This document shows positions 2,387 to 4,324 of a DNA stretch of 4,815 bases, piece by piece (within the stretch, counting starts at the first letter, position 1; every line of letters begins with the position of its first letter). Below the pieces are notes generated by a model that was given only the letters and a program-made list of their open reading frames with translations, was not told the DNA's origin and made no database searches. The position numbers and the translations under genes are program-made. Source of the stretch: a virus (taxonomy: Duplodnaviria; Heunggongvirae; Uroviricota; Caudoviricetes). The stretch is from the IMG/VR virus record IMGVR_UViG_2681813229_000016; one strand, given 5' to 3'.

Positions 2387-4324
2387 TTACGGGTTATTCA
2401 CTTCCACTGTTATACTTTCAATCAGCACCGGATATGTCGCACCGCTAGTGATATCGGTCACGCGCAATTTGTCTGCCGTAAACGTGCCGACCGGTGACTG
2501 TGACAGCATGAACGGCGTCCCGTCCTTACCATCAATGACCGGCGTCACCTCAATACTGTTGTTACCGGCAAAACGGAAGCCCAGCGTATGCCATTCGTTA
2601 TCAAATGCGCCGAATGACCCCAGCTTCGTGTTCTGACCAGCATTTCCCTTGTGGTACATCACATTAAGGTCTGTGGCATCGCTCTGTACGTAAAACGACG
2701 CCAGCAGGTTATGACCGGCATTACCTTCCAGTGTGACGCCCTGAGGCAGTGAAGAAACCGGCCAGTACAGCGCCAGTGCGTACTGATTAGCTGTCAGTGT
2801 GCCATCAACTTTAAAACGACAACTGATAAGCCCGCCCTTCTCCAGCAGGTCTGCGCCATTACCGGCATCATGCTGCATAAACCACGAGGAACTTCCTGTC
2901 TGTTTGGTCCACCTCAGCGCCTTACCTCCTGCAGCACCTGCATCATCAACTACCAATGCACGCCCTCCTTCAGCTCCCCATCCCTGCGGATTCAGTAAAC
3001 CACCTGACTCTGTTGCACGGTAATAAAGCAGCGTTGTCACTGATTTCCCGTCCGTTGACGGTGTTGATGGTGTGTCCGGTGACGGCTTCTCATCCGGCGG
3101 CATCACAACCTGTTCCCCACCCATCAGTTCAGCCGTCCGTCCTGCATGGAGAAGAATCGCTGAGGCAAGACGGTCAGAAATAATCCCCCTGCGTGCCCAT
3201 GAGCTGAAATGGCTCGCACGGTCTGCTGACGTCCAGTTTGCCGACGTCCGGGAGGCCGCACCGTAATATCCTGATGCCGGAATATCCGGGTCTTCTTCCG
3301 GTTTGTTCGTCGGGACATTTGCTCCGTTCTCATCGGTCATGAACGGCACAAAGTGAATATTCTTTTCCGTTTTGTTTTTGTAACTGCCGTACACCGTCTG
3401 GTAAGTGGATTCGCTCTTCTGCTTCCAGAAATAAGTTGTGTCTCCACATATCCAGGGAACACCGTCAGCAGAACCACCAGCGCACTGTCCCACCATATCT
3501 GCAAGGTCCGTACGATATTGTTCCACTACTTCTGTAAAACGGGCTGTGTGATTTGCTGGCGTTCCGTCAAAGTCAAATTCCCCCTGCATCCACACCACGG
3601 CAAGCAGCACATTTTTCGGGTTCTTTGCCAGCGCGGCTTTTGTACGACCGATGAGATCCTTATACAGCGGCCTGCCCACACCCCAGCGGGTAGAACTCTC
3701 TGAGGCACCGGTCACGTCACTGTATGTTCCATCTGCCCCGGTGGTGAAAGCTGAACCACCACGGCAGCACGGAACCAGAAGAATACCCGCATTCGCCGGT
3801 ATAAACGGCAGCAGCTTTTTGGCAATATGCAGCCCCTGCCCCACGGTTCCGTACTGACCTTTCGACAGGTCAGCTTTCGGATGGTTAAGACGGCTCATGT
3901 CCTGTACATCATGCAGACAGTGGTCTGCCGGAATAATGTCGTTATATTTACAGGGAGCGCCATCCGGCGTCACTGTGCTGCGACGAGCCAGTTGCTTTAT
4001 ACGCGGGTCAGGACGGTCATATGTCTGCGGCAGAGGAAGCCCCTCACCGTAAGCCATGCCGTTCGACTGCCCGGCCAGTGGAATAACGTAGTAATAATCT
4101 GGCTCCGTGGTGACCACTCCCGGATAGCCACCATCCCCCGTGCCGGGCACAACCACTGGCGTGGTCACATCCCCCTCCGCGGCAATCGCCTGCATCAGGG
4201 TATAAGGGGTTATGGCCACAGGACTACCAAACGGCTGCCAGCCCTCTTTCAGTTTGTGTGTCAGCTTTTCCGCAAGATCTGACGGCGACGCCGCCCTGAC
4301 AACATCATAATGTTTAATCGACAT
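2387..4324 (-). CDS. nanS-p: Prophage-encoded sialate O-acetylesterase (NanS-p type; DUF1737 - SASA/SGNH esterase - C-terminal beta-rich domain), 645 aa
   Basis: ATG 4324..4322 with SD ACGGGAGA about 7 nt upstream. GQSNG motif at res 85-89 (Ser87 codon 4064..4066), characteristic of SASA/SGNH sialate 9-O-acetylesterases. The N-terminal ~50 aa resemble the DUF1737 module. A Pro/Ser/Thr linker PPDEKPSPDTPSTPST (~3047..3100) precedes a ~220-aa C-terminal domain. Length, architecture and position upstream of the lysis genes match NanS-p of EHEC lambdoid prophages. Confidence 0.9.
   Translation of the reverse strand: MSIKHYDVVRAASPSDLAEKLTHKLKEGWQPFGSPVAITPYTLMQAIAAEGDVTTPVVVPGTGDGGYPGVVTTEPDYYYVIPLAGQSNGMAYGEGLPLPQTYDRPDPRIKQLARRSTVTPDGAPCKYNDIIPADHCLHDVQDMSRLNHPKADLSKGQYGTVGQGLHIAKKLLPFIPANAGILLVPCCRGGSAFTTGADGTYSDVTGASESSTRWGVGRPLYKDLIGRTKAALAKNPKNVLLAVVWMQGEFDFDGTPANHTARFTEVVEQYRTDLADMVGQCAGGSADGVPWICGDTTYFWKQKSESTYQTVYGSYKNKTEKNIHFVPFMTDENGANVPTNKPEEDPDIPASGYYGAASRTSANWTSADRASHFSSWARRGIISDRLASAILLHAGRTAELMGGEQVVMPPDEKPSPDTPSTPSTDGKSVTTLLYYRATESGGLLNPQGWGAEGGRALVVDDAGAAGGKALRWTKQTGSSSWFMQHDAGNGADLLEKGGLISCRFKVDGTLTANQYALALYWPVSSLPQGVTLEGNAGHNLLASFYVQSDATDLNVMYHKGNAGQNTKLGSFGAFDNEWHTLGFRFAGNNSIEVTPVIDGKDGTPFMLSQSPVGTFTADKLRVTDITSGATYPVLIESITVEVNNP

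Follow-up and report, generated by a model that had tools for sequence, protein, structure and literature searches.

What does the long open reading frame in the late region of this lambdoid E. coli prophage encode, and does its product serve the lysogen or the phage particle? The window, by which we mean the whole 4,815-nucleotide stretch of DNA analysed here, carries this frame at 2387..4324 on the minus strand, intact from its ATG start and encoding 645 amino acids. We conclude, with a probability of roughly 85%, that it is an intact NanS-p, the sialate O-acetylesterase that lambdoid prophages of E. coli carry, and essentially the Sakai Sp6 allele ECs_1527. The gene is thus an already known and well-studied E. 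coli prophage gene, present here as an ordinary copy. The gene and the parts of its product are as follows.

2387..4324, minus strand: nanS-p coding sequence, an intact ORF with a full-length match to phrog_143, exact copies in public sequences and a counterpart in Sp6 (ECs_1527).
4175..4315, minus strand: N-terminal DUF1737 domain, residues 4-50 (Pfam PF08410, E 3.3e-15).
3152..4108, minus strand: catalytic SGNH/SASA esterase domain, residues 73-391 (PDB 3PT5 match and Pfam SASA).
4058..4072, minus strand: block I, GQSNG, residues 85-89, aligning to GQSNA with Ser19 of 3PT5.
3209..3220, minus strand: block V, R369-A-S-H372, aligning to R-x-SH with His301 of 3PT5.
3044..3103, minus strand: Pro/Ser/Thr-rich linker between domains, residues 408-427, from the translation.
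2393..3040, minus strand: C-terminal lectin-like jelly-roll domain, residues 429-644 (PDB 6YP6 and Pfam DUF6645).

The first-pass annotation, made from the DNA letters, had proposed a NanS-p-type sialate O-acetylesterase of a known class, and the combination of DUF1737, SASA and DUF6645 with matches to phrog_143, 3PT5 and 6YP6 bears this out, the matches being much stronger than chance would give. It had suggested profile searches for SASA and DUF1737, and both families scored above their curated Pfam cut-offs, as did DUF6645. The N-terminus that it had called DUF1737-like matches PF08410 over residues 4-50 (56.1 bits, the cut-off being 24) and is of a type, hereafter the window type, whose core contains GSPVAITPYTLMQAIAAEG. 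SASA matches residues 83-275 (E 4.9e-11) and DUF6645 (PF20350) residues 494-611 (E 7e-71), while no NCBIfam model matched the esterase. The Pro/Ser/Thr linker was also read correctly: it is PPDEKPSPDTPSTPSTDGKS, at about residues 408-427, and it is the segment that varies most across homologues (15-97% identity). The protein therefore combines a SASA/SGNH domain bearing four conserved blocks, DUF1737, a DUF6645/6YP6-type domain and a lambdoid late-region position, the traits of NanS-p.

The esterase domain (residues 73-391) aligns with NanS (YjhS) in PDB 3PT5 over 315 residues at 58% identity (E 2.5e-119). SGNH domains occur in tail fibres, and a similarity of this domain to the tail-annotated family phrog_25867 is expected. 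The four blocks lie at residues 85-88 (GQSN), 188-193 (RGGSAF), 246-251 (MQGEFD) and 369-372 (R-x-S-H). Across 62 distinct homologues, all four residues of GQSN are invariant, Ser87 among them, as are Q247, G248, E249, D251, R369 and H372. The GQSNG motif and the nucleophile number given by the first-pass annotation are right, with GQSNG at residues 85-89 and the Ser87 codon at 4064-4066 on the minus strand. Its anticipated Ser/His/Asp triad stands for Ser87 and for His372 (codon 3209-3211, minus strand), the catalytic histidine by alignment, and falls for the aspartate: in PMC10792757, which describes the NanS blocks GQSN, RGGSAF, MQGEFD and R-x-S-H, a main-chain oxygen takes the acid role in 3PT5. 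By alignment, then, the active site is Ser87/His372 without a catalytic Asp. Homology predicts an SGNH-fold domain in which Ser87 would be the nucleophile and His372 the base, with an oxyanion hole and the RGGSAF and MQGEFD blocks.

According to PMC8065619 and PMC8319020, every nanS-p allele tested from EDL933 and O104:H4 yielded an active esterase; the tested alleles allowed growth on Neu5,9Ac2 and removed O-acetyl groups from mucin glycans. By extension from these assayed paralogues, we infer that the window allele is active on Neu5,9Ac2 and on O-acetylated mucin sialic acids. The enzyme would strip the 9-O-acetyl group, and 7/8-O-acetyl groups, from Neu5,9Ac2 and from mucin-bound sialic acids, and the product would be Neu5Ac, which E. 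coli can catabolise. The large C-terminal domain noted earlier is also real, although its lectin-like fold did not need to be predicted, as had been suggested: residues 429-644 are 70% identical to an already solved chain, 6YP6 "NanS-p" (E 9.5e-97), a domain type described as a lectin-like jelly roll in PMC8065619. The aromatics proposed to form its binding site, Y515, Y520, Y545 and F615, are all kept. The domain is proposed to bind carbohydrate, in which case it would probably target the enzyme to glycans.

The closest known relative is ECs_1527 in prophage Sp6 of E. coli O157:H7 Sakai, annotated "9-O-acetyl-N-acetylneuraminic acid deacetylase", which matches the window protein at 644 of 645 residues, the sole change being M405V in the linker. 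Sp6 also has the same flanks, with TerB-like, DUF3927, STnc100 and terminator elements upstream and DUF1378 and DUF826 downstream, and its DNA is 99.94% identical to window positions 1643-4815. The left part of the window (1-1640), in contrast, is only about 95% identical to Sp6. The NanS-p proteins of the Stx phages 933W (933Wp42/z1466) and phi24B (vb_24B_21/gp84) have the same 645-residue, three-domain build and are 74% identical to the window protein overall. Their catalytic domains are about 87% identical, with identical catalytic blocks, and their C-terminal domains 70% identical, whereas no relationship is seen between the linkers (10-18% identity), and the DUF1737 cores differ in type (58% identity), theirs having a loop three residues longer. 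Chromosomal NanS is periplasmic, belongs to the nan regulon and is not known to be phage-borne. It shares the homologous SGNH/SASA domain, the same unusual blocks and the Ser/His pair, but its 337-residue chain covers only residues 73-391 of the window protein and has no counterpart of DUF1737 or of the lectin-like domain.

The identical protein sequence is found on at least 1000 E. coli contigs in public collections, and 2399 of the 5426 complete genomes contain sequences matching nanS-p, with as many as 15 such places in a single genome. Short matches covering 8% of nanS-p in K-12-like genomes were considered as new fusions and rejected; they represent pseudogene remnants of DUF1737 within cryptic prophages of the Qin type.

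How is the gene expressed? Upstream of it, the window contains the following elements.

4331..4336, minus strand: Shine-Dalgarno sequence GGGAGA, 6 nt before the nanS-p ATG, read from the sequence.
4411..4437, minus strand: intrinsic terminator-like hairpin, GGCTGCGC-ATG-GCGCGGCC followed by T8, 95 nt upstream of nanS-p.
4465..4631, minus strand: sRNA element of the STnc100 family (PasD-related; Rfam RF02076), directly upstream of the terminator.
4639..4806, minus strand: gene for a small DUF3927/TciB-like membrane protein (Pfam PF13064; phrog_1470), in the upstream moron block.

The hairpin (4437-4419) has an 8-bp stem with seven G-C pairs, a T8 tail and a dG of -15.4 kcal/mol. Unlike the diverged sequence on either side of it, the stem is conserved upstream of nanS-p in both 933W and phi24B. 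The first-pass annotation had placed a tR'-like terminator here. The terminator itself is real, but its identification as tR' does not hold, because in loci identical to the window two terminators come earlier, along with Q and a pR'-like element. In one such locus (L004), 100% identical to window positions 1643-4815, Q ends at position 8922, about 590 nt past the window end, and is followed directly by a promoter-like element and then by terminator candidates at 8956-8972 and 9003-9020; the hairpin upstream of nanS-p lies at 9888-9906 of that locus, after a TerB-like pseudogene, the DUF3927 gene and the STnc100-family sRNA. The pR'/tR' region of these loci is thus about 0.9 kb further upstream, outside the window, and the hairpin next to nanS-p is a second terminator.

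The placement of nanS-p was correct, with the late regulatory region on one side and, downstream, the lysis genes: a holin remnant, YdfR/DUF1327 and lysozyme. In identical loci, Q likewise precedes nanS-p, and both lysis and head genes follow it. The further claim that it occupies the position of stx was not: the order in 933W is stxA2B2, STnc100/AsxR, the same hairpin and then nanS-p, and the stx-equivalent slot of the present locus is its TerB-like/DUF3927/sRNA block. Both 933W and phi24B keep the terminator hairpin and the STnc100 element upstream of nanS-p and have DUF826, S and R downstream; in these two phages stx is found upstream of nanS-p and the head is of the podoviral Phage_capsid_3 kind. 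The STnc100 element reaches 101.6 bits, where the gathering score is 47, with a poor fit to the model's 3' hairpin, and in 933W the family is likewise found between stxB and nanS-p. Linkage of an STnc100-type sRNA to the esterase gene has been described (bioRxiv 10.64898/2026.05.13.724894), and the same preprint reports PasA/PasC sRNAs between the esterase and holin genes; our three Rfam scans returned no Pas-named family.

Promoter-like matches in the window lie only on the plus strand, with none on the minus strand, and no tRNA genes were found in the window. With no such site to itself, and with Q, pR', tR' and a second conserved terminator all upstream, nanS-p would be expressed mainly by Q-antiterminated late transcription upon prophage induction. 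The case for late-operon expression consists of the gene order and of results for other alleles, for which PMC10462455 and PMC8065619 report that nanS-p expression goes up on induction.

Downstream of nanS-p lie small genes and the lysis genes.

2057..2239, minus strand: small DUF1378 gene between nanS-p and the holin gene (Pfam PF07125, E 5.8e-40).
1750..2019, minus strand: DUF826 gene, 89 amino acids counted from Met53 of the listed ORF (Pfam PF05696, residues 53-125); annotated relatives likewise have 89 amino acids.
1515..1674, minus strand: P21-type pinholin gene S, broken, as judged by comparison with O157 loci.
1166..1510, minus strand: YdfR/DUF1327 gene (Pfam PF07041, E 1.1e-44).
582..1115, minus strand: endolysin, phage lysozyme R (Pfam PF00959; phrog_7).

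Because the protein lacks a signal peptide, with no hydrophobic N-terminal segment in its translation, NanS-p would reach the gut lumen upon lysis of the induced cell; carriage on the virion through DUF1737 is also conceivable. The pinholin gene complicates release by lysis. It has a net deletion of 56 nt, with 58 nt lost and TT gained, which takes out TMD1 and causes a frameshift, whereas Sp6 has an intact 71-residue holin, along with an antirepressor gene between R and Rz. A frameshift that is real would impair release through the lysis system that this prophage carries. The intact gene could then be stranded as a passenger in a defective or mosaic prophage, or in a misassembled contig, with its protein rarely made or not released. 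The deletion sits exactly where identity to the same O157 loci switches from 100% (1643-4815) to about 95% (1-1640), it is absent from all 15 complete E. coli genomes listed as matching best, and 1046 of the 1488 index blocks with the protein have a longest contig of 2-5 kb, as is typical of collapsed prophage repeats. We nonetheless regard this scenario as unlikely. No damage is seen in the nanS-p ORF, which is identical to that of a widespread allele, and other lambdoid prophages in EHEC, with up to 15 nanS-p-matching places per genome, could supply lysis genes within one and the same induced cell. Were there an assembly artefact, it would say nothing about nanS-p function.

A different challenge comes from phi24B, whose orthologue (gp84) has been reported to decorate the capsid, anchored by DUF1737. 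In that work, cryo-EM and proteomics assign DUF1737 (residues 2-57) to the central hexons of each capsid facet, with Tyr42 as the anchor, and describe the protein as a processed structural decoration with SSP motifs associated with processing (bioRxiv 10.64898/2026.04.10.717836). The "cargo" label given to the gene earlier is thereby contested, and a role in lysogen nutrition may not be the primary one. NanS-p could instead be primarily a virion protein whose DUF1737 domain plugs hexons as a hexamer. The esterase and lectin domains would be displayed and later released by proteolysis, and the particle would thereby bind and modify O-acetylated sialoglycans of mucus, a "hemagglutinin-esterase"-like function of benefit to the phage and not to the lysogen. 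The significant DUF1737 match is consistent with this, as are the first 30 residues, which are those of phi24B but for a few substitutions, and Tyr41, in the region of phi24B Tyr42 and with Tyr present in 61 of 62 homologues; nanS-p would also be transcribed along with the late structural and lysis genes. Viral hemagglutinin-esterases (corona-, toro- and influenza C/D viruses), which combine lectin and sialate O-acetylesterase modules (PMC3266934), are a functional analogy only: they are envelope glycoproteins, whereas the lectin function of the window protein is a proposal and virion display has been shown for phi24B only.

The anchoring region argues in the other direction. Window-type and phi24B-type DUF1737 are 56-60% identical over residues 1-55, the loop reads ITP---YTLMQ in the window protein against STAGYGAEFIQ in phi24B and is three residues shorter, and both linkers of the window protein lack SSP motifs. 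We compared DUF1737 type with head type in related loci that have head genes in view, which are not phylogenetically independent of one another. The phi24B-type core accompanied the phi24B Phage_capsid_3 head in 5 of 5 loci. The window-type core was found with an HK97-like S78-MCP fusion (14 loci), with lambda-like gpA/gpB/gpC (19 loci) and with GpA plus a ClpP-MCP fusion (1 locus), and in none of these loci with the phi24B-type head (Phage_capsid_3, T=9). Strict co-variation of DUF1737 type and capsid type is thus rejected, being seen only in part, and a specific capsid plug would not be expected to go with three unrelated heads. Head genes are absent from the window itself. We consider it rather improbable that the window protein is primarily a virion protein acting on mucus for the phage. 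One could also imagine that window-type DUF1737 is a promiscuous anchor that docks NanS-p on unrelated HK97-fold capsids (lambda-like, HK97-like S78-MCP and ClpP-MCP fusion), an idea that we view as a long shot.

It is highly improbable that the esterase deacetylates bacterial surface polysaccharide, either O-antigen or capsule, as an aid to the phage in gaining access to its receptor. The Stx-phage review PMC8065619 puts this forward as a possibility but cites no experimental support, and residues 174-275 weakly resemble phrog_25867, annotated as a tail protein (E 2.8e-05). Against it, the catalytic domain shares 58% identity with NanS, which is sialate-specific; the paralogues that were tested have Neu5,9Ac2 and mucin as substrates (PMC8065619 and PMC8319020); and nanS-p lies outside the tail module.

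The reading of the gene as an ordinary NanS-p comes with a corrected view of its surroundings: an sRNA-terminator-esterase unit is common to the present locus and to Stx phages, and it is now clear which terminator is which. The occurrence of one DUF1737 variant beside three head modules bears on the recent capsid-anchor claim for this domain. If the anchor were promiscuous, most EHEC nanS-p copies would be virion-displayed, mucus-targeting lectin-esterases and not morons that benefit the lysogen, and STnc100-terminator-nanS-p would move as one recombination cassette. NanS-p enables EHEC and other E. coli to use the O-acetylated sialic acids of mucus, and its gene is among the most often duplicated prophage genes of these pathogens, a view that the present copy does not change.

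The gene at 2387-4324 on the minus strand, nanS-p, is a single, intact open reading frame of 645 aa, with an ATG start and GGGAGA ahead of it at a 6-nt spacing. The first-pass annotation had called its product a NanS-p-type esterase with a DUF1737-like N-terminus, a linker and a C-terminal domain, and translation and database matches bear out each element. Counting only Pfam matches above curated cut-offs, NanS-p contains DUF1737 (residues 4-50, E 3.3e-15), SASA (residues 83-275, E 4.9e-11) and DUF6645 (residues 494-611, E 7e-71), with a Pro/Ser/Thr-rich linker at about residues 408-427; phrog_143 (PHROGs) spans the whole protein. 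Among solved structures, residues 73-391 match 3PT5, the NanS/YjhS of E. coli O157:H7 (E 2.5e-119, 58% identity over 315 residues), and residues 429-644 match a chain of 6YP6 named 'NanS-p' (E 9.5e-97, 70% identity). The gene is an already known, widespread nanS-p, studied both biochemically and structurally.

The active-site blocks of 3PT5 (17-GQSNA-21, 120-RGGSAF-125, 178-MQGEFD-183 and R-x-S-H(301)-F-S; PMC10792757) align by HMMER with GQSNG 85-89, RGGSAF 188-193, MQGEFD 246-251 and R369-A-S-H372 of NanS-p, so the earlier Ser87 numbering is right. G85, Q86, S87, N88, R188, G189, S191, Q247, G248, E249, D251, R369 and H372 are all invariant in 62 distinct NanS-p proteins from related loci. 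Because of this alignment and invariance, the predicted catalytic pair is Ser87/His372. The Ser/His/Asp triad anticipated earlier is absent from the NanS family; in 3PT5 the catalytic His is contacted by a main-chain oxygen and no Asp side chain (PMC10792757).

The question of the C-terminal fold, earlier proposed for structure prediction, is answered by the crystallised domain from phi24B, a lectin-like jelly-roll with a proposed carbohydrate site at Y510, Y515, Y540 and F611, as described in PMC8065619 and by Pascal et al. (PMC10462455). All four aromatics are present in NanS-p (Y515, Y520, Y545 and F615); the substitutions seen in homologues are limited to Phe at two of these sites and Gly or Asn at the fourth. 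Carbohydrate binding by this domain is a proposal.

Of 5426 complete E. coli genomes, 2399 contain sequence matching nanS-p, and a single genome can have as many as 15 such places. At least 1000 public contigs, all E. coli, encode exactly the same 645 residues under the name 'SASA family carbohydrate esterase'. ECs_1527 of prophage Sp6 (O157:H7 Sakai), annotated as '9-O-acetyl-N-acetylneuraminic acid deacetylase', is identical at 644 of 645 residues, the sole change being M405V, and the O103:H2 copy WP_000023170.1 is equally close. The best-studied orthologues, 933Wp42 (z1466) and phi24B vb_24B_21/gp84, share 74% overall identity. At the DNA level, ten E. coli chromosomal loci with an Sp6-like arrangement are 100% identical to window 1643-4815, and Sp6 itself is 99.94% identical. 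The far end of Sp6 (L095 39303-49649) carries the type III effector genes espX7, espN, espO1-1 and espK and an nleB2-2 pseudogene. In one chromosome with the exact NanS-p, genes for a CI-like repressor, a Mu transposase C-terminal part and a MuB-like protein come after the small-terminase gene of the prophage (L007 17901-21938), a sign that a Mu-like element has inserted into the packaging module. Many E. coli genomes keep just the first ~150 nt of nanS-p, a DUF1737 pseudogene fragment beside holin, YdfR and rrrQ (for example L094 3994-4179, in a Qin-type cryptic prophage of strain KTa008); nanS-p has therefore been deleted from these Qin-type remnants.

All genes of the window lie on the minus strand, in this transcription order:

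Features around nanS-p
4639-4806, minus, DUF3927/TciB-like gene
4465-4631, minus, STnc100 sRNA match (Rfam RF02076, 101.6 bits against a gathering score of 47)
4437-4419, minus, strong hairpin with a T8 tail
2387-4324, minus, nanS-p
2057-2239, minus, DUF1378
1750-2019, minus, DUF826
1515-1703, minus, P21-type pinholin S remnant
1166-1510, minus, YdfR/DUF1327, intact
582-1115, minus, lysozyme

The STnc100 match immediately precedes the terminator and nanS-p, and because the model's 3' hairpin fits the window poorly, the 4437-4419 terminator may be the real 3' end of the STnc100-like RNA. Many E. coli prophages are reported to have PasA/PasC sRNA genes in the interval that separates the esterase gene from the holin-lysozyme operon (2026 preprint, bioRxiv 10.64898/2026.05.13.724894); here that interval is window 1704-2386, and its 147-nt gap at 2240-2386 is a candidate site for one.

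The 4437-4419 hairpin had been taken for a tR'-like terminator. Where loci are identical to the window, however, the gene for the Q antiterminator stops ~590 nt past the window's right end, and directly after it come a promoter-like element, TTGTTG...TGGTAAATT, and a pair of terminator-like hairpins (8956-8972 and 9003-9020 in the identical locus L004). These elements are the candidate pR'/tR', ruling out the 4437-4419 hairpin as tR' and making it a second terminator. The stem of this hairpin, GGCTGCGC...GCGCGGCC (window 4411-4437), is conserved in 933W (L002 4061-4084) and phi24B (L003 ~23185-23208), ~100 nt ahead of nanS-p and with diverged flanks. There it comes after stxA2B2, an STnc100 element (207.7 bits) and AsxR; in 933W the latter two lie between stxB and nanS-p, at L002 3778-3983 and 3985-4037, AsxR on the opposite strand. 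In this order stx stands upstream of nanS-p and does not take its place, contrary to the earlier suggestion that nanS-p occupies the stx position. The unit of STnc100-like sRNA, terminator and nanS-p is common to Stx and non-Stx prophages. The stx-equivalent slot between Q and nanS-p holds TerB/TciA-like and DUF3927/TciB-like genes (window 4639-4815, L004 9100-9686); the TerB-like gene, with only its last few bases inside the window, has an internal stop in relatives.

The adjoining pinholin gene is broken at a junction near 1641-1642. Compared with the O157, O103 and 933W holins, the 58 nt that code for TMD1 are missing and TT stands in their place; the net loss of 56 nt puts the gene out of frame. 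Of the best-matching complete E. coli genomes, the 15 listed all lack this deletion, and the break coincides with a drop in identity from 100% to ~95% against the same O157 prophage loci. Because the longest contig is only 2-5 kb in 1046 of the 1488 index blocks listing the exact NanS-p, the break is as plausibly a product of chimeric assembly across repeated prophage DNA as a genuine private mutation or recombination junction. In the O103:H2 relative, a 459-bp insertion (L001 7181-7639, against window 1180-1183) breaks YdfR/DUF1327, which is whole in the window.

Homology shows NanS-p to be an SGNH esterase with the predicted Ser87/His372 pair and a lectin-like C-terminal domain. Judging from assayed paralogues (PMC8065619 and PMC8319020), it would de-O-acetylate Neu5,9Ac2 and mono-, di- and tri-O-acetylated mucin sialic acids; the resulting Neu5Ac would be catabolised and give a growth advantage. 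Gene order suggests Q-dependent late expression; no sigma-70-like promoter match was found on the window minus strand, which fits expression through Q-modified read-through, and induction-dependent expression is reported for other nanS-p alleles (PMC10462455 and PMC8065619). The translated N-terminus has no hydrophobic signal-like segment, and NanS-p would probably be released by phage lysis.

The esterase call stands, but its description as a cargo gene is challenged by phi24B gp84, an orthologue that is reported, from cryo-EM and proteomics, to be a capsid-decorating protein (2026 preprint, bioRxiv 10.64898/2026.04.10.717836). In this account a hexamer of its DUF1737 (residues 2-57, anchor Tyr42) sits as a plug in the hexon at the centre of every T=9 capsid facet, and the remainder of gp84 is cleaved off after release (bioRxiv 10.64898/2026.04.10.717836). 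The window-type core, ...GSPVAITPYTLMQAIAAEG..., has a loop three residues shorter than that of phi24B, ...GSALISTAGYGAEFIQPVVSEG..., and keeps a Tyr (Y41) there. We compared DUF1737 type with capsid type in 80 IMG/VR loci and 12 loci of complete phage and E. coli genomes, the following counts covering only loci with head genes in view and being phylogenetically non-independent:

DUF1737 core type and head genes
phi24B type, phi24B Phage_capsid_3 head, 5 of 5 loci
window type, HK97-like Peptidase_S78-capsid fusion head, 14 loci
window type, lambda-like GpA/Phage_portal_2/S49 head, 19 loci
window type, GpA and ClpP-Phage_capsid_4 fusion head, 1 locus
two other core types, ClpP-capsid fusion head, 2 loci

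Core type and capsid type show some association, but the window type occurs with three head sets and is not confined to a single capsid; the variant does not strictly track capsid type. Domain-wise identities also reveal independent recombination of the three parts of NanS-p (N-terminal, catalytic and C-terminal), as already described for Stx2a phages by Pascal et al. (PMC10462455). Either the window-type DUF1737 recognises some generic trait of HK97-fold hexons, and may then anchor the enzyme to capsids other than that of phi24B, or in these prophages it has no role as a capsid plug.
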